Part shown: positions 2,718-33,573 of the stretch, one piece after another
Layout: each line of letters begins with the position of its first letter
Position numbering within the stretch: the first letter of the stretch is position 1
Virus genome (UHGV): UHGV-0344182
DNA: 39,649 nt
Direction: 5' to 3' (one strand)
DNA from: a virus
Notes under the pieces: model-generated
What the model was told of the DNA's origin: nothing
Databases searched by the model: none
Seen by the model: only the letters and a program-made list of their open reading frames with translations
Translations under genes and position numbers: made by a program

Positions 2718-4345
2718 CGTTAAGGCCATACCAAGAAGCGGCCCTGCAGGCGGTGTTGCGCGATATGCGAACGCATAAAAACGTCCTCCTGCAGGCCGCC
2801 ACGGGCGCGGGGAAAACGATCATGTTCTCAGCCATCACCAGACTATTCGTAGAAAAATGGGGCCTGCATGTCGCTATCCTCGCGCACCGTGAACAGCTTG
2901 TCCGTCAGGCGGCAGATAAACTCCTTAAGGTATGGCCGGAAGGCGAAGACAAGGTAGGCATAGCCTGCCACTCTGTGACGTCATTTGTAGACGTCAACCG
3001 GCAGGTGGTGATTGGCTCCCCGCAGACGCTGGCCCGCCGTCTTGGTGAGTTGCCCGAACAGCAGCTTCTCATTGTTGACGAGTGCCACCGCCTGCCGCCG
3101 GCCGGCAAAAAAAGCCAGTACGCCACACTCATTAACCGCCTGCGTGAGTACTACCCCGATATGCGTATGCTGGGAGTGACGGCCACGCCCTACCGCCTGG
3201 GACACGGGTATATCTACGGAGAGGATTGCCGCGAGCCAAAAGAAAATTGGTTCGAAACGTTGTCCTATTCAATCGGTATTGACGACCTGCAGGACGAAGG
3301 CTTTCTGGCGCCGCTTAAGGGCTACGGGTGCACGGAACCCGACCTTTCAGGTGTGAAAACGTCCAAGGGTGAGTACGATTTAGGGGAACTGTCTGATGCC
3401 ATGTCTCAGGCTGTCCACGTTGGCAGCGCCGTTGAGGCGCTGAAGAAGTACGGGAAGAGGCGCCGTCATGTGGTGGTTTTTGCCGTATCCATCCAGCATG
3501 CCGAGATACTCAGGGACGCTTTTCGGGCCGCCGGGTATCGCGCTGGGGCAGTGCATTCTCAGATGCCGCACGATGAGAGGCAGAAGATTTTGGCTGCGTT
3601 CGACAACGGCGAGCTGGACGTTATCTGCAACGTGGGCGTGCTCACGGAAGGATGGGATTGTGTCTGCGTTGATTGCATGGCCATGTGCCGGCCAACGAAA
3701 AGCACGGCCCTGTACGTCCAGATGATAGGGCGGGGGCTCAGGACGGCGCCCGGGAAGACTGACTGCCTCCTGCTGGACCTTTCAGGCAACTGGAGGGAGC
3801 ACGGCAATCCTGCTCATCCGCGCATCCGCTGGACGAAGCCGGGGGGCCGTATACAGCAGGAGAAGAAGGGGCCGGCGGAACCGGGGCTCATTCAGTGCCT
3901 GGAATGCGAGGCGCTTATTCCGCAGTCGGCTATAACATGCCCGTTTTGTGGAGCGCCGCAGAAGCGTATCTGTGACCGCGTTCCGGTCATGGAGGAGCTG
4001 AAAGACGCGGAGAACAGCGTCCAGAAGGTCAGGCTGATAGCCACGCCGGCATTCAATCCGGCGTTCACGTCAAGAAGCGGCAATCACATGCTCAGAGTGG
4101 ATATGTGCGGCCAGCTGGAGGACGGGCGTCCCGTGTCCTTCTCGGAGTTCCTCGACCTTGAAGGCGAGGCGTCAGCTTACGGGCAGAGCAAAGCCCGCCA
4201 GATATGGAACGGCATCACGCAGACCGTCCCGCCCGTCACGCTGGAAGAAGCGGCTTCGCGGCTTGACGAGCTGAAAAACAGTTTTCCCGCGGAACTGTGG
4301 GTGCGGAAGAGGGACAAGTACTATCACGTAGTGAGGTGGTCATAA
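2711..4345 (+). CDS. Superfamily 2 DEAD/DEAH-box DNA helicase with C-terminal zinc ribbon
   Basis: LRPYQ (Q motif), AATGAGKT (motif I), DECH (motif II), TATP (III), QMIGRGLR (VI); CxxC...CxxC zinc ribbon; start uncertain (GTG 2711 overlapping upstream stop, or GTG 2633). Confidence 0.8.
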   Translation: MVTLRPYQEAALQAVLRDMRTHKNVLLQAATGAGKTIMFSAITRLFVEKWGLHVAILAHREQLVRQAADKLLKVWPEGEDKVGIACHSVTSFVDVNRQVVIGSPQTLARRLGELPEQQLLIVDECHRLPPAGKKSQYATLINRLREYYPDMRMLGVTATPYRLGHGYIYGEDCREPKENWFETLSYSIGIDDLQDEGFLAPLKGYGCTEPDLSGVKTSKGEYDLGELSDAMSQAVHVGSAVEALKKYGKRRRHVVVFAVSIQHAEILRDAFRAAGYRAGAVHSQMPHDERQKILAAFDNGELDVICNVGVLTEGWDCVCVDCMAMCRPTKSTALYVQMIGRGLRTAPGKTDCLLLDLSGNWREHGNPAHPRIRWTKPGGRIQQEKKGPAEPGLIQCLECEALIPQSAITCPFCGAPQKRICDRVPVMEELKDAENSVQKVRLIATPAFNPAFTSRSGNHMLRVDMCGQLEDGRPVSFSEFLDLEGEASAYGQSKARQIWNGITQTVPPVTLEEAASRLDELKNSFPAELWVRKRDKYYHVVRWS

Positions 4346-16935: not shown

Positions 16936-16945
16936 AGGTGACCTC

Positions 16946-24055: not shown

Positions 24056-24337
24056 CTAACCTCTACATAATTTTTTGATTTTATTCAACATTTTCATAAA
24101 GACGTTGTCTTTTGTGGAAAAGGCCACGTCCTCAAGCGTTTGAAGAAGGCAGGCCTGAACCCTGTGGAGCGCCTGAAGGTCACGCCACAGGGCATCACGT
24201 TCTCTGAGGGACTGTTCCCCCTTCCAGCGGGAGCATATACCGTGCTCCACCTTTTTTACGGCCCCGATAAAAACGGGGCTCGTAAGAATGCGGTATGCCA
24301 TTTCGGCGTTCTCTCTATCTTTCTGAGTGGCGGTCAT
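24056..24337 (-). CDS. hypothetical protein (93 aa) between portal and scaffold
   Basis: ORF; overlaps portal stop. Confidence 0.45.
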   Translation of the reverse strand: MTATQKDRENAEMAYRILTSPVFIGAVKKVEHGICSRWKGEQSLRERDALWRDLQALHRVQACLLQTLEDVAFSTKDNVFMKMLNKIKKLCRG

Positions 24338-26445
24338 ACGGACTGCTCCTTAATGTCAGTAAGGCCAGGGCCTCGTTGCCCCTGTAAAATACGTGCGTAG
24401 TCAAGTTGCTTCTCCAGCTGCATTTCCTGAGCTTTAAGCGCGGCGTTTGCCTGCACCTTAGCTGCCTGCACGGTAGCGTCAGACTGTACTTTAGCGGCCT
24501 TGCCGGAAGCGTCATTCTGTGCCTGCGCCTGCTTAATCTGCATATCGAGCTGGGCTTTCTGGAGCGCGGTTTGCGCCTTGACCTTCTCCACCTGGACTTT
24601 TGCCGCCGTGAGCGGGTCCATGCCCTGCCCGGCCTGCTTTTGCTGGAGGATGAGCTGTTCAGCCTGTTTCGCGTCTTCTTCCGTGCCAAAGAAGCGTTCC
24701 GGTGCTTCCAGTCCGGCCGCCTCTACCATCTTATGGCACGTGTAGATGACGTTGCTGATGCGCACGGGAGACGCCGTACTCAGCTGCGCGATAAAGGACT
24801 GCTGGATCTGGAGTATCTGCTGATAGGCGGCAAGCATCTTCTGCCTGCTGCCTGTACCAAGCCCCACGGCTACGGATATATCCATATCCGGATCCCACTT
24901 ACGGGGGTCGAAGTTCATGAAGCGGCCCTTTAAGCGCACCTGCACGGCCTTGTCATGGTAACGGTGCAGGAGGTTCAGCACGTATCGGCCAAGCGGCTTG
25001 AAGAACATCTCCGCATACACTCTGGCAATCATCTCAAGGCGCTGATTAATCGCCTCTTCCATTATAGATGCGCCCGTGGCCGTATTCTGGAGAGTATCAG
25101 CGTCGAGGCTTTGCGTGCGGGACGTGACGCCGGAACGCCGCTCCACAAGCTGATCCGTCAGCTGGAGGCCCTGCACGGCTTCATTAGCCGAACTGTTCAC
25201 CGGAAGCGGTGTGATAGAGGCACCTCCACGCACGCGGTACAGAGCGCCGGGTTTGCGGGACAGGAGCGAGTCAATATCCGCCCACCCCGTTTGGCTAGGG
25301 CCGTAATCGACTACGAGCTCACCGGAGTTGGCGTAGCTCAGGGCGTCCAGATACGAGCGGGTCAGGTCAGTACGCAGGTCCTGCACATCGGCTACGAGGT
25401 CAGCGAGGCAGAGCCCCACCACCTGATGCGGCATAGGCACCGAACAGGCCGCGAAAAGCGGCGCGCGGTACAGCGGCCACTCTTCCACAGAAAGGATCTT
25501 AGTGTCCGATCCATCGCCCACATATACGACCTTAGCCTTTTCAGACATGCCGTCGCCGTTCAGGTCTACGTCCAGCCACGCTTCATAGACTTTGAAGCGC
25601 CGACTTTCAAAACTTTCTGTTTCTCCCGTGCCGTCAGAGGCAGAGTTGACGCGCTGGCCTATACTCTTCTCTTCGGGGTCATCATCCGCCCCGTAGACGG
25701 GAAGATCTTCCAGCGTCTCACGCCTATAACCTTCCTGCATCAGCTGCGTAGCCGTCCTGACTTCCCAGTGTGCGATAAAGCGGGCATGCTCCACATCCTC
25801 AGCTTCAGAAGACACAAGAACGTTTTCCGAAGGGACGGGGTCAAGGCGCACGTCATGCGTGACCGTCTTTGTGCGCACGGTCACGGCGCAGGCCATGCCG
25901 CCCGGCATAGCCGGTTCGGGGTACTGCTCCACTTCCGCCACGCCGCCGCGGGCTTCCGTGTCGGCAATCATGGCCTGTGCTTCCTGCACAGAAAGGCCGG
26001 TGAAGCGCTCCATAGTCTGAAGCTCTTCACGCGGCGCGTGTGCGAGGCACCACCCTACGCGCTGATACAAGCCGTCCTTCAGCGTGTCATGTATGAGCCG
26101 GAACATCGAGCGCCCGAAGACCACCTGATTTACATAAAGCGTGGCATCAGCGGCGGCCTGCTCCTGCGCCGGCGTGCGCGGCTCAAAGCGGATAATCTCA
26201 TCGCCGCCGGCGAAGACGCGCATAAGCCCAGGCATCGCCCATTCTATTGTCTCCATCACGGTACGGTCTACGTAGGTAGAGAGACAGCGCTTCTCGCGGT
26301 CATCGTCCACACCGTAGCCGTAGCCGAGATAGCGCTTTTTGAGCTTCGCGCGGTCGCTGGAGAGCTGACCGCCCGGCGTACCGATAGCAGAAGCGCTTTC
26401 CCTGATAATAATTTTGCGTACCTTGTCTTCTATATCTGTCAGCAT
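24334..26445 (-). CDS. portal protein (about 703 aa)
   Basis: start refined to ATG 26445 (MLTDIEDKV), overlapping the TerL stop as ATGCTGA; large protein following TerL; coiled-coil Ala/Lys/Gln-rich C-terminus. Confidence 0.8.
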   Translation of the reverse strand: MLTDIEDKVRKIIIRESASAIGTPGGQLSSDRAKLKKRYLGYGYGVDDDREKRCLSTYVDRTVMETIEWAMPGLMRVFAGGDEIIRFEPRTPAQEQAAADATLYVNQVVFGRSMFRLIHDTLKDGLYQRVGWCLAHAPREELQTMERFTGLSVQEAQAMIADTEARGGVAEVEQYPEPAMPGGMACAVTVRTKTVTHDVRLDPVPSENVLVSSEAEDVEHARFIAHWEVRTATQLMQEGYRRETLEDLPVYGADDDPEEKSIGQRVNSASDGTGETESFESRRFKVYEAWLDVDLNGDGMSEKAKVVYVGDGSDTKILSVEEWPLYRAPLFAACSVPMPHQVVGLCLADLVADVQDLRTDLTRSYLDALSYANSGELVVDYGPSQTGWADIDSLLSRKPGALYRVRGGASITPLPVNSSANEAVQGLQLTDQLVERRSGVTSRTQSLDADTLQNTATGASIMEEAINQRLEMIARVYAEMFFKPLGRYVLNLLHRYHDKAVQVRLKGRFMNFDPRKWDPDMDISVAVGLGTGSRQKMLAAYQQILQIQQSFIAQLSTASPVRISNVIYTCHKMVEAAGLEAPERFFGTEEDAKQAEQLILQQKQAGQGMDPLTAAKVQVEKVKAQTALQKAQLDMQIKQAQAQNDASGKAAKVQSDATVQAAKVQANAALKAQEMQLEKQLDYARILQGQRGPGLTDIKEQSV

Positions 26446-27731
26446 ATAGTAAGTCTTGTCCCCCGTCTCAGGGGCTCCATAGCCCCAGTGTCTGTACGGA
26501 TAAAGCCCACGGCGGCATACCGCATGGCGTCCGCACCGTGAGAAGTCCAGTCGTGGAGCGGCTGCGTCCTGAAGCACTGATGCTCCTCGTCGTACTCTCT
26601 CTGATAGCCCCACAGGGCGGAAAGCCCCTGAGCGCATTTATCCTTGTCTATGTAGGAGCAGGCCAGCACCTGCCGGACGCTCTCTATGCCGTCCATAACG
26701 GGCAGCTGAGGTGCGGCAGTGAAGCCTATCCCCAGCCGGCGGGCCGTCTCAAGGCGGGTCACGCCCGTACCCAGCTCCCGCACAGCTATATCATGCGGCG
26801 CTATGTGCTGACCGTAGCGGTACCCTTTTTTAGCCAGGACTTCTGCGTAGTGCATGAGCCCCTCACCGGCGGTCTCGTAGTAGTCAACGAAACGGTACTG
26901 CCCGCGGGATGTGCCATCATTCAGCCACTGGAAGAACCAAATCGCGGTACTGTCGGCCATACCGAGGTCCCACGCCGTATGCACGAGCAGTGTAGGGTCT
27001 ACCGGCACTGAGCCGATACGGCCGGCGCTCTCCGCTTCCTGAAGGATCCTGCCATAGTAGGAGCCCTGCGCCACGAGAAGCGGGTTCCCTTCCCAGACGC
27101 AGTCGTACTTGTCGGGGTCAGTCTTCTTACAGTGCTCCATCTCCTGACGGAGCACGTCCGGGAACCACGAGTTATCCCTGTACGTCACCTTGCGGACGTA
27201 GGATCCGGGCGGCGGCGTGTGGACGATGAAGCGCTGCCAGACGGGAGCGTGCACCCTGCTCGGGTTGAAGGAGATCCATATCTCCGACCCATGCGTGCGC
27301 ATGGTGGGGATAAGCAGGTCCAGCGACCGCTCAGATACCGTCTCCGCCTCTTCTATCCAGCAGTGAGTAAGACCCTCATACGACTTTATCTTTTCCGGGG
27401 ACGTCCGGAGGCCGGAAAAAATAAAAAGGCTTCCATTGAGGCCGCGTATCTCAGCATCTGTAGAGCGGTAAAAGTCACCCATGCCGAGGCGCTCTATCTC
27501 ATCATCAAGCAGGCGCTTCACGCTATCCCTGATGCTGTTTTGCACCTCACGGGCGCACAGGCACCGGATAGGACGGCGGCGCCCCTCTATGAGCAGAGCG
27601 GACGCGAAGGCGCGGCTTTTGCCGCCACCACGGCCCCCGTAGAAGACCTTGTACCGGTGAGGCTTGAAAAGCTCCTCGAAGGCCTCAGGGAAGAAGGCGT
27701 CCACGCGGTGCACTACTCTTTCTCTGTGCAC
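26439..27731 (-). CDS. terL: terminase large subunit
   Basis: Walker A KVFYGGRGGGKS near N-terminus; C-terminal nuclease-like region; overlaps TerS by 19 nt. Confidence 0.9.
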   Translation of the reverse strand: MHRERVVHRVDAFFPEAFEELFKPHRYKVFYGGRGGGKSRAFASALLIEGRRRPIRCLCAREVQNSIRDSVKRLLDDEIERLGMGDFYRSTDAEIRGLNGSLFIFSGLRTSPEKIKSYEGLTHCWIEEAETVSERSLDLLIPTMRTHGSEIWISFNPSRVHAPVWQRFIVHTPPPGSYVRKVTYRDNSWFPDVLRQEMEHCKKTDPDKYDCVWEGNPLLVAQGSYYGRILQEAESAGRIGSVPVDPTLLVHTAWDLGMADSTAIWFFQWLNDGTSRGQYRFVDYYETAGEGLMHYAEVLAKKGYRYGQHIAPHDIAVRELGTGVTRLETARRLGIGFTAAPQLPVMDGIESVRQVLACSYIDKDKCAQGLSALWGYQREYDEEHQCFRTQPLHDWTSHGADAMRYAAVGFIRTDTGAMEPLRRGTRLTIC

Positions 27732-28386: not shown

Positions 28387-28925
28387 CTGCCACCTCCCTG
28401 CACTTTCTTCAAGAAAGCGTCTTTTGAAGCGCTGCCGAGACTGGAGCCGAGGTAGTACTGGACGACAGCGCCGAAGGCGGAAGCGAGCGTACCTAGGAGC
28501 ATCAGCCCCGCATCCCCGAGCTCAGCCTTCCCGCCGTGGAGCACGGCCCACAGCATCACAAAAAACCCCACGGTGACTATGCACGACACTACGGACGTAG
28601 CCCAGCTGGCACCGTGGCCGGTCTTGGCCAGCTCGACCTCACGATCACGTGCGCTCATCCTATCTGTGAGCTCTGCCTGCACCTGGTCTCTCTGCCACTG
28701 GAGGAGCTGCGCCTGCTGCTGGATCTCCAGATCCTTTAGCTTGAGCAGCAGGTCGGGGGACTGCGCCAAGGTGCGCTGCACGTCCGCAGGGTCAGGCTCA
28801 CACCCGAGCGCGGACGCTATGAGTGAGCCGGCCGCCCCGGCGATAGCGCCCACAGGTCCGCCGAGGACGCTGCCCAGCACGGGCGCCGCCTTAGCGACGG
28901 CGCGGCCGACGTCTGCCCACTCCAT
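28383..28925 (-). CDS. holin of the GTA-type 3TM family
   Basis: N-term MEWADVGRAVAKAAPVLGSVLGGPVGAIAGAAGSLIASALG plus DP..LLKLKDLE and two further TM helices match the GTA_holin_3TM pattern. Confidence 0.6.
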   Translation of the reverse strand: MEWADVGRAVAKAAPVLGSVLGGPVGAIAGAAGSLIASALGCEPDPADVQRTLAQSPDLLLKLKDLEIQQQAQLLQWQRDQVQAELTDRMSARDREVELAKTGHGASWATSVVSCIVTVGFFVMLWAVLHGGKAELGDAGLMLLGTLASAFGAVVQYYLGSSLGSASKDAFLKKVQGGGR

Positions 28926-29557
28926 CAGAGAAGCTCCTGCAGGAGGCGGCCTTCCGCGGCGCGCCGTCCCAGGTACTCACCGCCCCACCCGTCACGGTCG
29001 AGGAGTGCGGCAGACGCCTTCGCCCAGTCTCCGCGGCGCAGGGCCGCCAGAGTGACGGGCGCACGGCGCTCAGCTCCACGCACCCCGCACTGATAGACGA
29101 GCGAGAAGGCCACGGCCTGCGCCTGCCACGGGAGAGAGGCGAAGTCGCGGGAAGGCGCGCGCCTGTCCCACCACGGCACCACTACATCATCCATGTAGCC
29201 GCGGTGCTCGGCATCCGTGAGCTCACGCGCCTGCGCCACCGTGAGGGTGAGCGAGCGGTTGCGCAGCTCGCGGAGAGCGGCACCACACTGTAGACCTATA
29301 TACATATGGATAGCATCCATCGTACCATCGGACACTCCCCAGCGTCTCAGCTGGGGGGCAGTCTGCTGGCCGAGGTCTACGCCCACGCCCACAGTCACGC
29401 CAGAGACACCCATAGCCTCATAGTCCGTCACGGGCGCGCGGCCCGTGTAATTCTCCGTCCCGCCGGACAGGCGCCGGCACGGTATATACCCGCGACACGT
29501 CAGCGGCCCTTCTACCGTCTCCAGCCACTTGAACACCTTTTTATACTGAATCGACAT
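28925..29557 (-). CDS. endolysin, GH24 pesticin/T4-lysozyme-like
   Basis: E...D...T catalytic spacing (VEG, TDYEA, VTVGVGVDLG) and the LPWQAQAVAFSLVYQCG / RRGDWAKA segments resemble T4 lysozyme-type muramidases. Confidence 0.65.
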   Translation of the reverse strand: MSIQYKKVFKWLETVEGPLTCRGYIPCRRLSGGTENYTGRAPVTDYEAMGVSGVTVGVGVDLGQQTAPQLRRWGVSDGTMDAIHMYIGLQCGAALRELRNRSLTLTVAQARELTDAEHRGYMDDVVVPWWDRRAPSRDFASLPWQAQAVAFSLVYQCGVRGAERRAPVTLAALRRGDWAKASAALLDRDGWGGEYLGRRAAEGRLLQELL

Positions 29558-29746
29558 TTTTGTAACTTCCTGTAATTAACTTCCTATATTTTTGTAACTT
29601 TTTATAGGAAGTATGTCAAAAAGTTGACACTTATGCAAGGGAAAATTTTTCAAAAAAACACTTTACAAAGACTAAAAAAGCGTAAAGTTCTTTTTCAAGA
29701 GAGAGAGAAAAAAAAGAAAAGCCTCTCTCAAAAAGGAGAAAAAGTT
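29558..29746. promoter_or_regulatory. divergent promoter/operator region between the late (lysis-morphogenesis) operon and the + strand 3-gene operon
   Basis: 13-bp direct repeat ATTTTTGTAACTT x2; TAACTTCCT x2; 10-bp inverted repeat ACTTCCTATA/TATAGGAAGT; back-to-back TTGACA hexamers (TGTCAA-AAAG-TTGACA); GAGAGAG/CTCTCTC hairpin before the RBS. Confidence 0.5.
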
Positions 29747-30427
29747 ATGACCACCACCACCGCCACCACCGAAAAGCTCATCACCTCCCTTGAAGAAAGG
29801 GGTTTCAAGCGCTGGACTAAGGGAGATAAGGACCGCATGTACATCGACGCCGAAAAACTCGGCCTCAAGGTCCAGAAGTACGGATCCGGCGCCGTAAAGC
29901 ACGCAGAGTGGGATGGAGAAAAGATCTCCAACCGCGCGGGCGCCTCCATGCTTCATGCTAAGACATATCTTGACCTCACGGACATGTCAGTCCATAGCGA
30001 CGACAGCGACCTTTTCGCCGCCGCAGAAACTATCATCGAAGAGATCCGTGCCATCCTCGAAGAAGAGGAAAAGAAGGAAGAAAAGAAGGAAGAAAAGAAG
30101 GACACTATGCCCCTCACCGACACCGCCATCAGCGCTATGCAGGAGCTCTACCAGAGCATCAGCTACGACGCCCGCATGGACTACTGCACGAAAGAGATGG
30201 CCCAAAGTATATGCCGGGACACTCTCGCGAAAGAAGCCGAAAAGAGGGGTATCGCAGACCCAAGTATGATGAACACCGCCACGGGGTCTGTGGACAAGCT
30301 CAGTGGCTGGATCTGTGACTACATGGAGCTCACCCCCGAGGAGTGGGGCGGCCATTACTTCTCAGACGCCGGGCTTGTCGAAGTCCGCAGGACCGCGGAC
30401 GGCGGTTGGGAAGAAGCCGACGACTAG
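29747..30427 (+). CDS. acidic two-domain protein with (EEKK)n linker, unknown function
   Basis: AAAAGGAGAAAAAG RBS; 226 aa; tandem GAAGAAAAGAAG repeats encode EEEKKEEKKEEKK. Confidence 0.6.
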   Translation: MTTTTATTEKLITSLEERGFKRWTKGDKDRMYIDAEKLGLKVQKYGSGAVKHAEWDGEKISNRAGASMLHAKTYLDLTDMSVHSDDSDLFAAAETIIEEIRAILEEEEKKEEKKEEKKDTMPLTDTAISAMQELYQSISYDARMDYCTKEMAQSICRDTLAKEAEKRGIADPSMMNTATGSVDKLSGWICDYMELTPEEWGGHYFSDAGLVEVRRTADGGWEEADD

Positions 30428-30477
30428 CACAGGAAAGGCCCCTTTACGGGGGCCACGCACAAAAAAGGAGAAAAAGC

Positions 30478-30744
30478 ATGATCTATATCAGCGACACCAC
30501 ACCCAGCAAGTACATCACGGCAGACTACCTGCGCTCTCTCCCCCGCGAAGAGCGGGAAGCCTACCATGTAGCAGACGCACAGGAGCTCTGCGCACTCATC
30601 GACAGCGCGGAGACATGGGGCACCGTAGACCAAGACGTGTACAGGCATCTGGCGTATCTCCTCGACCTCGACACGAGCAGGTATGAAGACTGTGAAGCCT
30701 TCATGCAGGACGTGAAAAAGGTCATGGAGGCCGACCATGCCTAG
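30478..30744 (+). CDS. small acidic protein (88 aa)
   Basis: AAAAAGGAGAAAAAGC RBS before ATG 30478. Confidence 0.6.
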   Translation: MIYISDTTPSKYITADYLRSLPREEREAYHVADAQELCALIDSAETWGTVDQDVYRHLAYLLDLDTSRYEDCEAFMQDVKKVMEADHA

Positions 30745-30928
30745 CGGCGGCGCCCGGAAGGGGGCCGGAAGAAAAGAAGGCGTCAGGACTGCCACTACGC
30801 ACATCATGCAGATCCGCCTCCAGCAGGAGGACTATAGAGCCCTCCTAGGGATGGCAGAAGCCATGGGCACGAAGCCGGCCACGCTGGCAAGAAAGATTAT
30901 CCACGCCCACCTGTACGCCACAAGATAA
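30737..30928 (+). CDS. ribbon-helix-helix (CopG/Arc-like) DNA-binding protein
   Basis: 63 aa; basic N-term, THIMQIRLQQEDYRALLGMAEAMG..ATLARKIIHAHL fits a beta-strand plus two-helix RHH fold; overlaps upstream gene (ATGCCTAG). Confidence 0.5.
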   Translation: MPSGGARKGAGRKEGVRTATTHIMQIRLQQEDYRALLGMAEAMGTKPATLARKIIHAHLYATR

Positions 30929-30931
30929 GGG

Positions 30932-30964
30932 AAGGGCCCCGCGTGTGCGGGGCCCTTCTTTTTT
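30932..30964 (+). terminator. rho-independent terminator of the + strand 3-gene operon
   Basis: 11-bp GC-rich stem AAGGGCCCCGC/GCGGGGCCCTT, GTGT loop, then CTTTTTT. Confidence 0.85.
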
Positions 30965-31202
30965 ACATATGCTTCTTTGCGCAGTTATGGTACGAGTTGT
31001 ATCCCTCAAGCATCTGAGCGATCTCTTCATCATCCAGAGTATCTCCCCAGCTGCCGATGGTTCCAAGTAGATCAGACAACCCCCCACAGGCTTCAGCCTC
31101 GTCATATAAAGCCTGTGAAATAATATGCGAGAGCGGCCGGGGCTTCTTCGGAAGATTGTTCAGGGCTTTCCAAATTTCGTCAACAATTTTTGCTTCGTAC
31201 AT
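30963..31202 (-). CDS. hypothetical protein (79 aa)
   Basis: ORF; last gene of the - strand early operon. Confidence 0.5.
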   Translation of the reverse strand: MYEAKIVDEIWKALNNLPKKPRPLSHIISQALYDEAEACGGLSDLLGTIGSWGDTLDDEEIAQMLEGYNSYHNCAKKHM

Positions 31203-31256: not shown

Positions 31257-32036
31257 TCACTCAAGGCACAGCTCCTTCCTGGCATACTCCCAGAGCGTCA
31301 TACCCAGGGATGTGTGCGTCGTGTCGGGCAGAGTCTTCAGCCAGTCAAGAGACGGACGGTCTTCATTCTCCTGTCCGCCGCCTATCTGCTGGCAATTGAC
31401 GAACCGGCATCCGCTGCTCCCGCCGGTGCCGTCCCCAGTGAAGTCTATCCCCCTTCTCTGCCCGCTCACCCATGAGGGGCGGGAGAAGATGCCTCGGATG
31501 CCGTTGTCGTTGTACGCCTCACCAAGGTGGTTGAGGTGGTCCACGATCCAGTCCTTACGTCTCAGGGAGTGAGAGCGCGAGAACACGCAGTCCCAGACAC
31601 TCAAAGAGGCGCCATTGTGCGCCCACGCGCCGAAGGTGCGGACATCGAAGCACCCCACGCCCCAGTCGTGCACCCAGCAGTTCCTCATGTCAGCGAGGAC
31701 GCCATCCTGCACCTCGGGACACCTTCTCCCGCACCTGATGAAGGCGCAGTTTTTGAGAAAGAGAAGCCCTGACTTATCTTCTGCCGGGTAGTCCCCGTTG
31801 CCCCCAAGGATAGCTTTCTTGCAGCCGATGAAGGCGCAGCGGTCGATGACCACATGGGCCCCCTTGATGCAGTCGATAGCTTCATCCTGATCAGCAAGCG
31901 GAACGGCGGAGAGGTCAAAGATGCAGTCCTGGATGAGAGTGCCGCCGTCACTTCCCCAGACCTGGATGCAGTCTCCGCCGAGATTGAACGTCGGGGCCGT
32001 ATAGAGGCCTTCCCGGATTACCCTGCTGTAGCTCAT
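31257..32036 (-). CDS. right-handed parallel beta-helix repeat protein (259 aa)
   Basis: repeated short turns with regularly spaced Cys/Ile/Asp/Asn (DCIFDLS, IDCIKGAHVVIDRCAFIGC, LFLKNCAFIRCG, RNCWVHDWGVGCFDV, WDCVFSRS) typical of pectate-lyase-like beta-helices. Confidence 0.55.
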   Translation of the reverse strand: MSYSRVIREGLYTAPTFNLGGDCIQVWGSDGGTLIQDCIFDLSAVPLADQDEAIDCIKGAHVVIDRCAFIGCKKAILGGNGDYPAEDKSGLLFLKNCAFIRCGRRCPEVQDGVLADMRNCWVHDWGVGCFDVRTFGAWAHNGASLSVWDCVFSRSHSLRRKDWIVDHLNHLGEAYNDNGIRGIFSRPSWVSGQRRGIDFTGDGTGGSSGCRFVNCQQIGGGQENEDRPSLDWLKTLPDTTHTSLGMTLWEYARKELCLE

Positions 32037-32215
32037 TGCTCCTGCCTTCCAGACTTGCCCATACCGTGCTTAACGCGATCCGCTTCTTCGGCGCGCTTCG
32101 CGTCGTTGAAGCGGTCCAGTGTGCCGACAAGATAGCCGGTAATACGGCGGATGCGCTCGAACTTTACGCCCTTGCCGACAAAACGCGTCTTATTTGGTAT
32201 GTGAATACTTTTCAT
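32033..32215 (-). CDS. hypothetical protein (60 aa)
   Basis: ORF overlapping neighbours; weak. Confidence 0.3.
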   Translation of the reverse strand: MKSIHIPNKTRFVGKGVKFERIRRITGYLVGTLDRFNDAKRAEEADRVKHGMGKSGRQEQ

Positions 32216-32435
32216 TTTTTAACTCCCTTACGATTTTCAAAAGGTTGCGGTTGCAATGCCGGCACATCCGGCCGCAGAGGATACCCCACCCGCGCGCGGC
32301 TTCCGCGTCGTCCCCGTCTACGCTTTCGGGGCCCGACATCCCGCAGGAGGGGCAGGCGACAGTACGCCCGCCCCCGTCAGTATCGGCCAAGTAGACGTCG
32401 GGGCACCCGCAGTATGGGCAGGAGTGCAGGATCAC
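32190..32435 (-). CDS. Lar-like zinc-ribbon protein (restriction-alleviation family)
   Basis: SCPYCGCPDVYL....TVACPSCGMSGP....EAARGW closely follows the Lar family pattern (CPFCG...C..CG....A...WN). Confidence 0.55.
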   Translation of the reverse strand: MILHSCPYCGCPDVYLADTDGGGRTVACPSCGMSGPESVDGDDAEAARGWGILCGRMCRHCNRNLLKIVRELKNEKYSHTK

Positions 32436-32443
32436 AGTACGTG

Positions 32444-32755
32444 CTAGTTTTCGGCGAGAAAGTCACTAAAAAGCCAGAAAGGTAGCACAATGAAGACAAT
32501 CCCCAGTATCGACGTAACCCATCCGGCTTCAAGAGCAACAAGCCCGACCCCAATCAGTAAAGAGGCCGCAAAAGCCACTAACAGAAGGAATCCAGACTCA
32601 AGCAACTCGAAAAAAAGCCCAACGGCCAAACAAAAAACCAGGAAACCAAGAATAATACTGAGCATATCAACACCTCCAATGCCAAGAATTATACAACAGC
32701 CCAAAAAAACGCAAAGGGAAAAAACAAAGGGCACCTTGACAAGACAAAAGGTCAT
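32444..32755 (-). CDS. small integral membrane protein (103 aa, 3-4 TM), lower-GC
   Basis: almost entirely hydrophobic; lower GC than neighbours; ATGA overlap with Dam gene. Confidence 0.45.
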   Translation of the reverse strand: MTFCLVKVPFVFSLCVFLGCCIILGIGGVDMLSIILGFLVFCLAVGLFFELLESGFLLLVAFAASLLIGVGLVALEAGWVTSILGIVFIVLPFWLFSDFLAEN

Positions 32756-33573
32756 GACACGCCCCCCAGTCTCAGCATCCCGGGTTCACGCGCACGCTGG
32801 AGGGCATTCCACGTGCGCGGGGACAGCCAGAGGCATTCTTTTGTCTTTTTATTCTTGAATGCATGGTGCTGGCGCGTCTCTATATGCCAGCCGGGCAGCT
32901 CGTCGGCGTACAGCTCATTCATGTAGCCGGAGAGGACGACATACCCACTGACTTTTTTAAAGACGCCAAGCATGGCCTCCTGATCGATGGTAGCTGGGTA
33001 CCGGAAAGAGTACCTGCAGTGATATGGCGGATCCATATACCACAGCGTATCGGGAGAATCATAGAGCGGTATTAGCTCAAGCGCGTCTCTGCACTCGATG
33101 ACCACAGAGCGGAACCGCTCCGCAATCTCTGACATTTTTTCGACGCGGTTTACAAAAACTTTTGCATTTCCTCTGATTTTTTTACCGTCGGAGGCAAACC
33201 CGGTCCGGCTTTCGGACACCACCCCTCTTATCCCGATCCCCATATCAGCCCTGACGACCAGAGCACGCGCCCTCTCTATATCATCACCTTCCGGCATGGG
33301 GTAGAAGCTATAGTACTCTTCTCTGGCATACGGCGTGAGCCTCAGCCGCCGGATAAGCTCAGCGGCCTTTTCCTTGTCCCGTAACACACTGAAAAAGTTA
33401 ACTAAATCGCTGTTCAGGTCGTTATACACCTCCAGCGGTGAAGGCTCCTTGTTCAGAAGAACGCCAGCTGCACCGCCAAAAGGCTCTACGTATATTTTAT
33501 GCCGGGGGAAAAAGAAACTGACCCACGAAGAGATCTGCACTTTTCCCCCCGGATATTTCAGAGCTGTTAGCAC
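32752..33573 (-). CDS. dam: DNA adenine methyltransferase (Dam / D12 class N6-adenine MTase)
   Basis: YPGGK, EPFGGAAGV (motif I) and DPPY (motif IV) in the gamma-class order. Confidence 0.85.
   Translation of the reverse strand: MLTALKYPGGKVQISSWVSFFFPRHKIYVEPFGGAAGVLLNKEPSPLEVYNDLNSDLVNFFSVLRDKEKAAELIRRLRLTPYAREEYYSFYPMPEGDDIERARALVVRADMGIGIRGVVSESRTGFASDGKKIRGNAKVFVNRVEKMSEIAERFRSVVIECRDALELIPLYDSPDTLWYMDPPYHCRYSFRYPATIDQEAMLGVFKKVSGYVVLSGYMNELYADELPGWHIETRQHHAFKNKKTKECLWLSPRTWNALQRAREPGMLRLGGVS

Follow-up and report, generated by a model that had tools for sequence, protein, structure and literature searches.

In the immI (arc-ant) region of phage P22, with its ribbon-helix-helix (RHH) repressors Arc and Mnt, a small RHH protein governs an accessory operon that is self-contained and lies amid the late genes of a podophage. 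Anti-CRISPR operons that end in a gene for an anti-CRISPR-associated (Aca) regulator (acr-aca operons, e.g., those with Aca1 of JBD30 or with Aca2) have a strong early promoter, between one and three small orphan proteins that are acidic, and, in last position, a small DNA-binding gene. AcrIC5 is a validated and highly acidic type I-C inhibitor that blocks DNA binding by Cascade (PMC7913775; EVADES preprint), and Desulfovibrio type I-C CRISPR-Cas is the structural reference for this subtype (PDB 7KHA, cited in the EVADES preprint). Aca14, an RHH-type anti-CRISPR-associated regulator of Pasteurella multocida dating from July 2026, is encoded at the end of an anti-defence operon and binds an AT-rich inverted repeat that overlaps the promoter (bioRxiv 10.64898/2026.07.27.740549). 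Here we analysed UHGV-0344182, a phage genome of podovirus type and ~39.6 kb (the window hereafter, i.e., the whole stretch of 39,649 nucleotides), in which a + strand island of three genes, A, B, and C, sits between a - strand lysis/late block and a - strand early block. We propose, with a rough probability of 0.55, that this island is an accessory operon of a gut Desulfovibrio podophage that is driven by host RNA polymerase and acts as an acr-aca operon does, through effectors and an autoregulator.

The island is made up of the following genes, domains, and signals:
29747..30427, + strand: gene A, 226 amino acids (aa), isoelectric point (pI) 4.69, net charge -18
29747-30058, + strand: A_N, the N-domain of A (residues 1-104), predicted local distance difference test score (pLDDT) ~94
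30059..30100, + strand: (EEKK)n linker of A (E105-K118)
30107-30424, + strand: A_C, the C-domain of A (~residues 121-226), pLDDT ~50
30437..30454, + strand: intercistronic GC hairpin GGCCCC-N6-GGGGCC, followed by AAAAAGGAGAAAAAG, a ribosome-binding site (RBS) context identical to that of gene A
30478..30744, + strand: gene B, 88 aa, pI 4.37, net charge -11, pLDDT 86, optional cargo
30737..30928, + strand: gene C, 63 aa, pI 10.96, RHH protein, constant element of the locus
30927..30968, + strand: intrinsic terminator, a 16-bp GC-rich stem (30927..30962) followed by T6

Translation signals are strong and tightly packed, with AGGAG/GGAGG Shine-Dalgarno sites 6-8 nt ahead of the starts of A, B, and C. 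The ATG of C, a putative autorepressor, overlaps the stop of B within ATGCCTAG, and the last seven codons of B (MEADHA plus stop) hold both a GGAGG Shine-Dalgarno and the overlapping start of C. The GC hairpin and the RBS behind it look like a cassette boundary, and comparable hairpin-plus-RBS units precede cargo genes in two of the related loci described below (L005 and L041). The terminator (folding energy -31.1 kcal/mol, z = -6.15) abuts the stop of a convergent 79-aa open reading frame (ORF; 30963..31202, - strand), and its hairpin gave the only Rfam matches, all of them sub-threshold. Gene calls, pI values, and profile matches thus bear out the original prediction, made from the letters of the window, of a self-contained + strand operon with two acidic proteins and a terminal RHH gene; the AGGAG RBSs, the (EEKK)n linker, the strong terminator, and all of the repeats that it listed are present as well, with slight corrections to two coordinates.

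The call of C as an RHH protein was confirmed by matches of its family profile to solved RHH structures, with AvtR (4hv0) at E = 5.6e-5, 2kke at 1e-3, and CopG at 0.19, and with weaker matches to HP0222 and NikA; in addition, Pfam RHH_5 weakly matched the C homologues of L005 and L012. By these profile comparisons, C is a member of the MetJ/Arc/CopG superfamily, and its family carries a conserved N-terminal arm, GGARxGAGRK, ahead of the RHH fold. When compared with Aca14 (sequence from Table S2 of bioRxiv 10.64898/2026.07.27.740549), C aligned across the RHH core only (hhalign E = 6e-5, probability 65%, 22% identity; BLASTP E = 0.013, 26% identity over 50 residues). As the similarity in both searches is confined to the generic RHH core, C is not in the Aca14 family, and on paper it resembles an Aca14-type protein in its mode of action.

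A tblastn comparison of all modules over 38 loci, plus look-ups with the window-type RHH protein, revealed ~30 related loci in which the RHH gene, the 5' untranslated region (5'UTR), and the RHH translation-start region are constant and the cargo differs. At least nine architectures were found, namely A+B, A alone, A+B', A_C alone, ext319-like+B-like, ext319-like alone, a 96-aa acidic protein, A_C-ext319+p200, and A_C+p200, and the RHH gene is last in every one of them, with its Shine-Dalgarno/ATGCCTAG coupling kept. A search for this RHH gene in other phages had been proposed as a check in the original prediction; the comparison and look-ups together returned these nine or more cargo arrangements ahead of the RHH gene, and the cassette in three phage types. 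The sister podophages carry the following cassettes:
Window, L029, L034, L042, L043: A, B, and RHH gene
L001, L026, L031, L033, L036: A and RHH gene, B deleted
L002, L003, L025, L030: A and RHH gene with a 108-bp remnant spacer
L004, L032: A, an unrelated 77-aa B', and RHH gene
L018: ext319-like acidic protein, B-like gene, and RHH gene
L039, L040: ext319-like gene and RHH gene
L041: 96-aa protein (pI 4.05), 21-codon remnant, and RHH gene
L038: C-domain of A only, and RHH gene

These cassettes occupy an equivalent site in the sister podophages, adjoining the lysozyme gene, and B is missing or replaced in most of them. All of them kept the promoter and 5'UTR, a poly-Thr start, and the final codons '...MEA(D/P)HA', in which the GGAGG Shine-Dalgarno and the overlapping RHH start are embedded. 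The poly-Thr start of the first cargo gene (29747..29770 in the window) reads MTTTT, MTTTTATT, or MTTTTTTATT, with a variable number of ACC repeats and with any protein after it, and the ACC tract could be slippage-prone or serve as a recombination tract. Together, the conserved 5' end (5'UTR and poly-Thr) and the RHH translation-start region look like recombination anchors. In L041, a 21-codon remnant ORF, MTTTTATIEARTAAMREADHA (2944..3009, + strand), bridges the conserved start and the conserved tail, and it preserves the Shine-Dalgarno and the overlapping RHH start after deletion of the cargo.

Beyond the podophages, cassettes with their own promoter and terminators are present in a myovirus-like prophage and a siphovirus-like prophage:
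L005 (myovirus-like), convergent with the tail-fibre genes: truncated A, B-like gene, RHH gene, second RHH gene
L012 (siphovirus-like), at the border with host genes: C-domain of A fused to ext319, a paralogous 200-aa acidic protein (p200), RHH gene

Across the podo-, myo-, and sipho-like phage types, A_C is 84-94% identical and the RHH proteins are only 25-33% identical, and the cargo proteins are acidic throughout (pI 4.05-5.1). Homologues of gene A form 71 clusters, mostly at 75-91% identity, from human or animal gut metagenomes. The phage nucleotide database and a scan of genome contigs with the A family gave no match, and the host was found instead through a gene next to L012: this host gene, which encodes a major facilitator superfamily (MFS) transporter, is 98-100% identical to genes in uncultured Desulfovibrio genomes, and therefore, by this sequence match, the host is a gut Desulfovibrio.

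One rival possibility is that the island is a generic early host-takeover or accessory operon, in which the targets of the acidic proteins would be housekeeping machinery (RNA polymerase, nucleoid proteins, division or replication factors) and the RHH protein would time an early-to-middle switch. Small acidic orphan early proteins and sigma-70 promoters are typical of host takeover (e.g., T7 Gp2 and 5.5, and T4 early genes), no cargo protein matches an anti-defence family, and the operon sits between early and late blocks. However, host-takeover genes are usually syntenic and lineage-specific, whereas this cargo is swapped even where the phages are nearly identical, and the cassette has moved among podo-, myo-, and sipho-like types. 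The own promoter of the prophage copies suggests expression outside the lytic programme, and the AcrIC5 fusions within the A_N family (see below) also argue against a takeover role, which we thus regard as unlikely although well worth keeping in view.

The same prophage copies raise the question of whether the cassette is a prophage-type moron for lysogenic conversion or superinfection exclusion, with proteins that protect the lysogen or alter the host under control of the RHH protein. The L005 and L012 cassettes lie at the prophage edge, after tail-fibre genes and beside host genes, with their own promoter and terminator, and Firmicutes A_N genes are placed after the lysis cassette; a GajA/PtuA-like ATPase also occurs in the corresponding region of a sister phage. 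Anti-CRISPR loci of Listeria prophages hold the same post-lysin position, and because of this the position does not discriminate between a moron and an anti-CRISPR locus. On the other side, none of the cargo proteins is matched by a PADLOC defence model; they are small acidic soluble proteins that lack enzymatic or membrane domains, and an integrase was not found among the window ORFs scanned against Pfam or PHROGs. A moron role therefore appears improbable to us.

The link of the acr-aca-like reading to a known inhibitor runs through the N-domain of A. An exhaustive hidden Markov model search with the A family recovered 1145 representative clusters (at 50% identity), 384 of them with E <= 1e-10, and nearly all share A_N only; it forms the N-terminus of proteins 95-313 aa long, and the C-terminal portions of these are hypervariable and, for the most part, acidic. 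The A_N family ranges from Firmicutes to Desulfovibrio phages, and no Pfam domain was found on A_N in any of the 149 best matches scanned. Elsewhere in these 149 representatives, three partner domains were recorded:
12/149: Phage_Gp111 N-terminal extension
1/149: DsbA fusion
2/149 (P0166, P0235): AcrIC5 domain after A_N and an acidic linker

The AcrIC5 assignment in A_N proteins is well above threshold (PF22147, 63.2 bits with a cut-off of 27, E = 2.5e-17; PDB 7yhr, E = 0.003), and P0235 matches the AcrIC5 segment of P0166 at 1e-10. Judged by domain order, A shares the architecture of these known Acr fusions, with A_C in the effector position. Comparison of A_C and B with the AcrIC5 segment of P0166 gave hhalign probabilities below 1%, Pfam had no match for A or B, and no support was found for B being homologous to the acidic C-terminal domains that recur in A_N proteins. 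One family member, P0171 (278 aa), has A_N fused to a complete DsbA-like thioredoxin domain (PF01323, 4.7e-26; PDB 3gyk, 1.7e-41), a partner that departs from the acidic-effector pattern.

Downstream sequence was readable for four A_N-family genes, and a small basic gene follows each of them (RHH in the window, RHH-like by eye in two, and helix-turn-helix (HTH) by eye in one). The three loci other than the window are arranged as follows:
L044, operon headed by P0235: A_N-AcrIC5, an 83-aa acidic protein, and a 57-aa basic protein overlapping the preceding stop
L015, Firmicutes prophage, downstream of holin and lysin genes: A_N gene, then a 62-aa homologue of the L044 basic protein
L048, between oppositely oriented genes: A_N-X, a 94-aa acidic protein, and a 67-aa protein, behind a consensus TTGACA-17-TATAAT promoter

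The 67-aa protein of L048 reads as a Xis/MerR-type HTH by sequence alone, and the middle genes of L044 (709..960) and L048 (1292..1576) are homologous (83 and 94 aa, pI 4.2-4.4), which makes them a second recurrent cargo family. The order of A_N fusion, small acidic protein, and small basic DNA-binding protein thus recurs across phyla with the DNA-binding fold apparently swapped, and homology between C and the small basic proteins behind Firmicutes A_N genes was unsupported (hhalign probability 0.5%). It is possible, though we hold this only tentatively, that A_N is a widespread 'carrier' domain that marks anti-defence effectors, joined by acidic linkers to hypervariable effectors of which AcrIC5 is one, in operons that end in a gene for an RHH or HTH autoregulator. 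In this reading, effectors (A_C, B, B', ext319/p200, and the 96-aa protein) would be shuffled at the Desulfovibrio locus between two anchors, and A_C would act as a novel inhibitor of one of the immune systems of Desulfovibrio, type I-C Cascade for instance.

For A and B, nothing rose above noise in Pfam, PHROGs, NCBIfam, or PADLOC, the profiles of both families had no match in PDB, and no fold related to DNA-mimic anti-restriction proteins of the Ocr or ArdA type was found. These searches also bear on a toxin-antitoxin or addiction-like module, in which the RHH protein would be the antitoxin or regulator and A or B the toxin or modulator. RHH proteins are common antitoxins and some toxin-antitoxin systems place the regulator second, and the L012 RHH protein has a weak match to the BrnA antitoxin (E = 0.015, far below cut-off). 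Yet no toxin family matches the cargo, the strong acidity of A and B is unlike toxins, which tend to be basic, and the cargo is deleted or replaced while the RHH gene is kept, being too diverse for the cargo to be the toxin. No obligate toxin partner of the RHH gene was recognised; its partners are acidic and freely lost or replaced, and we consider a module of this kind highly improbable.

How the operon might be controlled was examined in the divergent region upstream of A, whose features are:
29558..29746: divergent AT-rich control region, 189 bp, 27.5% GC, flanked by the endolysin gene (- strand) and gene A (+ strand)
29556-68 and 29588-600, - strand: direct repeat ATTTTTGTAACTT (AAGTTACAAAAAT on the - strand)
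29579-88 and 29603-12: 10-bp inverted repeat ACTTCCTATA/TATAGGAAGT, the operator of the original prediction
29614..29629: TGTCAA-AAAG-TTGACA, conserved in most sister loci
29653..29695: inverted repeat AAAAAACACTTTAC/GTAAAGTTCTTTTT, with core ACTTTAC/GTAAAGT over the -35 and -10, 14-nt arms, 86% complementary
29662..29688, + strand: putative A-B-C promoter, TTTACA (29662-67), 15-nt spacer, TAAAGT (29683-88)
29701..29729, + strand: 5'UTR hairpin (GAGAGAG, A-rich loop, CUCUCUC), just upstream of AGGAG (29734-38)

The promoter of A is likely the site at 29662..29688 and not the TTGACA at 29624, because the former aligns with promoter units of sister phages and the latter has no -10. Specifically, the site aligns with the TTGACA-N16-TAAAGT proximal unit of phages with the commoner RHH type, and CTTTACA-N15-TAAAGT is present in 7/7 units of the four loci with the window-type RHH, so that promoter type co-varies with RHH type. 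Sister phages carry two tandem promoter units and their control region is ~100 bp longer; the single unit in the window is as expected from recombination between two copies. The rightward TTGACA (29624) was rejected as the -35 of A, with no -10 hexamer at 16-18 nt and no rightward sigma-70 site in a promoter scan. Of the back-to-back -35 hexamers that had been proposed within TGTCAA-AAAG-TTGACA, only the left half has a putative -10 partner: the element is present, and TTGACA at 29619->29614, with a 17-nt spacer and TACAAA at 29596->29591, forms a leftward promoter candidate.

The best candidate operator for the RHH protein is the inverted repeat at 29653..29695, which this protein is predicted to bind. 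The pattern CTTTAC-N12-20-GTAAAG is unique in the window (0.02 matches expected), and the CTTTAC/GTAAAG inverted repeat is kept in 7/7 promoter copies of the window-type RHH. The palindrome ACTTCCTATA/TATAGGAAGT at 29579..29612, which had been put forward as the operator, was rejected as the leading candidate for that role. It is perfect in the window only, its arms show ~7/10 complementarity in sister phages, also in those that share the RHH type of the window, perfect inverted repeats of at least 10 bp occurred in 13.9% of dinucleotide shuffles of the 189-bp region, and it lies ~50 bp upstream of the -35 of the likely A promoter. The palindrome flanks the -10 of the possible leftward promoter; if it has a function, this more likely concerns the lysis/late operon. 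Decamers like ACTTCCTATA (<=1 mismatch) occur seven times in the window compared with 0.9 expected (5894, 16941, 26445, 29565, 29579, 29603, and 39483); ACTTCCT is the reverse complement of the AGGAAGT Shine-Dalgarno, and at 16941 and 29565, at least, the decamer corresponds to an AGGA(A/G)GT Shine-Dalgarno in reverse complement, ahead of a - strand gene.

Both copies of the direct repeat are conserved in five sister loci with <=1 substitution; the proximal copy contains the endolysin RBS spacer and start codon, and the distal copy overlaps the putative leftward -10 TACAAA (29596->29591). A direct repeat as long as the observed one occurred in 7.4% of dinucleotide shuffles, and TAACTTCCT is also present twice in the control region. 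The repeats are genuine and yet, taken alone, within expectation for an AT-rich spacer. The 5'UTR hairpin, judged from per-sequence folds since MAFFT misaligns the 3' arm of the prophage variants, has the same fold in 15/17 distinct UTR variants, with a GGGGG/CCCCC stem in the prophage versions.

Taken together, these features suggest a course of events for the acr-aca-like operon. The sigma-70-type promoter at 29662..29688 would fire upon DNA entry and yield a leader with a 5' hairpin and very strong RBSs, so that the acidic cargo would be made at once, i.e., A as a conserved N-domain with an acidic linker and a small acidic C-domain, and B as an optional small acidic helical protein. The cargo may then bind and block components of host immunity, with type I-C Cascade as one candidate target. 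The small RHH protein, translationally coupled to the cargo, would accumulate, bind the inverted repeat over the -35 and -10, and shut the operon off, and over longer times the cargo would be swapped by recombination between the 5'UTR plus poly-Thr start and the RHH translation-start region. The timing of expression, the repression by C at its operator, and the anti-defence activity with its target are all predictions of this scheme.

Several observations weigh against this proposal. Neither A nor B has a match among known anti-defence proteins or solved folds, and the low confidence of the A_C model (pLDDT ~50) makes a structural search with it uninformative. The AcrIC5 link concerns the A_N domain only, in distant Firmicutes relatives (2/149), and A_N is absent from several Desulfovibrio cassettes (L012, L035, and L038), so that it may be an unrelated adaptor given this dispensability. 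That the Firmicutes basic proteins have an RHH fold and the L048 protein an HTH is an unconfirmed reading of sequence patterns. Judged by its sequence, the promoter of the window looks weak (TTTACA, 15-nt spacer), most of the candidate operator is made up of runs of A and T, in which chance alone is expected to give perfect 7-bp inverted repeats, and the 5'UTR hairpin is not significant against shuffles in the window (z = -1.46) and is degraded in two recombinant variants. Finally, the prophage copies are in a classical lysogenic-conversion position, which fits prophage-expressed exclusion or host modulation equally well. The acr-aca-like interpretation first offered for the island is thus partly supported, by the architecture, variability, and mobility of the locus and by the A_N-AcrIC5 link, and not by any homology of A or B to a known anti-defence protein.

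The remainder of the window is organized around the island as follows:
Left end of the genome, + strand: helicase/exonuclease block
24334..26637, - strand: portal
26439..27731, - strand: large terminase
Block left of the island, - strand: small-terminase-like gene and two membrane proteins (holin-like genes)
28925..29557, - strand: Pesticin-type lysozyme (endolysin; PF16754, 5e-19)
Right of the island, - strand: Lar-like gene, Dam methyltransferase, VRR-NUC nuclease, and PrimPol
32033..32215, - strand: 60-aa NrdD-like C-terminal fragment (phrog_487)
32190..32435, - strand: Lar-like restriction-alleviation zinc-ribbon protein (phrog_599, 2.4e-4)
32752..33573, - strand: orphan Dam-type N6-adenine methyltransferase (PF02086, 2.5e-17)

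The annotated large-terminase and portal ORFs share ~200 nt (26439..26637), an overlap that is probably not genuine and instead an artefact of taking the first in-frame ATG as the portal start. The Lar-like gene and the orphan Dam methyltransferase are within 2.6 kb of the island, and sister phages have a Cas5/Csf3 homologue, a GajA/PtuA-like ATPase, an HNH endonuclease (by eye), and a P22-type antirepressor within 3 kb of it. Details of three of these genes are:
L039 5085..5759, - strand: solitary type IV Cas5/Csf3 homologue (PADLOC 5.7e-31, Pfam Csf3) in the early operon, beside PAPS-reductase-like (phosphoadenosine phosphosulfate reductase-like) and Lar-like genes
L001 8082..9806, + strand: GajA/PtuA/OLD-like ABC/AAA ATPase, 574 aa, low GC (PADLOC GajA 8.8e-19), ~1.2 kb downstream of the island
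L004 7123..7821, - strand: 232-aa HNH/NUMOD homing endonuclease-like protein (by eye), directly after the RHH terminator

The Cas5/Csf3 homologue may be a Cas subunit co-opted by the phage, and the GajA-like ATPase is a defence-type gene in the same hotspot. A 140-aa protein with an HTH by eye is encoded just upstream of this ATPase. The neighbourhood of the island is therefore a hotspot of conflict-related accessory genes, and the Lar-like, Dam, Cas5/Csf3, and GajA/PtuA-like genes fit an anti-defence reading of the operon.

Three things are new here: the families of the effectors and of the regulator, a fusion domain that is widespread yet uncharacterised, and cassette swapping by a visible mechanism. 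If the acr-aca-like reading is true, A_N, A_C, B, B', ext319/p200, and the 96-aa protein would be new anti-defence candidates, and C would represent a new family of RHH regulators from gut Desulfovibrio phages, whose hosts are clinically relevant and little studied. With ~1100 clusters and absent from Pfam, A_N could serve as a guilt-by-fusion or guilt-by-association handle for anti-defence discovery across phyla, which would complement searches by HTH-type Aca proteins and extend the very recent finding of RHH Aca regulators.

Relative to the known systems, the locus resembles P22 immI in having a small RHH protein with a self-contained accessory operon in a podophage, and differs in that the P22 RHH gene comes first and accompanies a single antirepressor, whereas here it comes last behind variable cargo, in which Pfam found no Ant, KilAC, or Bro domain. 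AcrIC5 (PF22147; PDB 7yhr) shares with A_C a small and highly acidic domain and, in P0166 and P0235, the position after A_N and an acidic linker, although A_C and B are without similarity to it. C and Aca14 have in common a size of ~65 residues and a basic N-terminal arm ahead of an RHH fold (bioRxiv 10.64898/2026.07.27.740549), but their similarity is at the superfamily level only (22-26% identity), the GGARxGAGRK arm is distinctive to C, and the hosts, cargo, and operator sequence of Aca14 all differ from those of the Desulfovibrio locus. In comparison with acr-aca operons in general, the regulator here is RHH instead of HTH, none of the genes has homology to a validated Acr, both operator and repression are predicted, and the cargo starts with a protein that fuses two domains, of which the N-domain is widespread. 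The overall design is nevertheless shared, with an inverted repeat in the promoter and a structured 5'UTR, a DNA-binding gene co-transcribed in last position (C overlaps B, and the three genes lie between a single promoter and a single terminator), and a conserved regulator whose upstream genes differ and move between unrelated elements.

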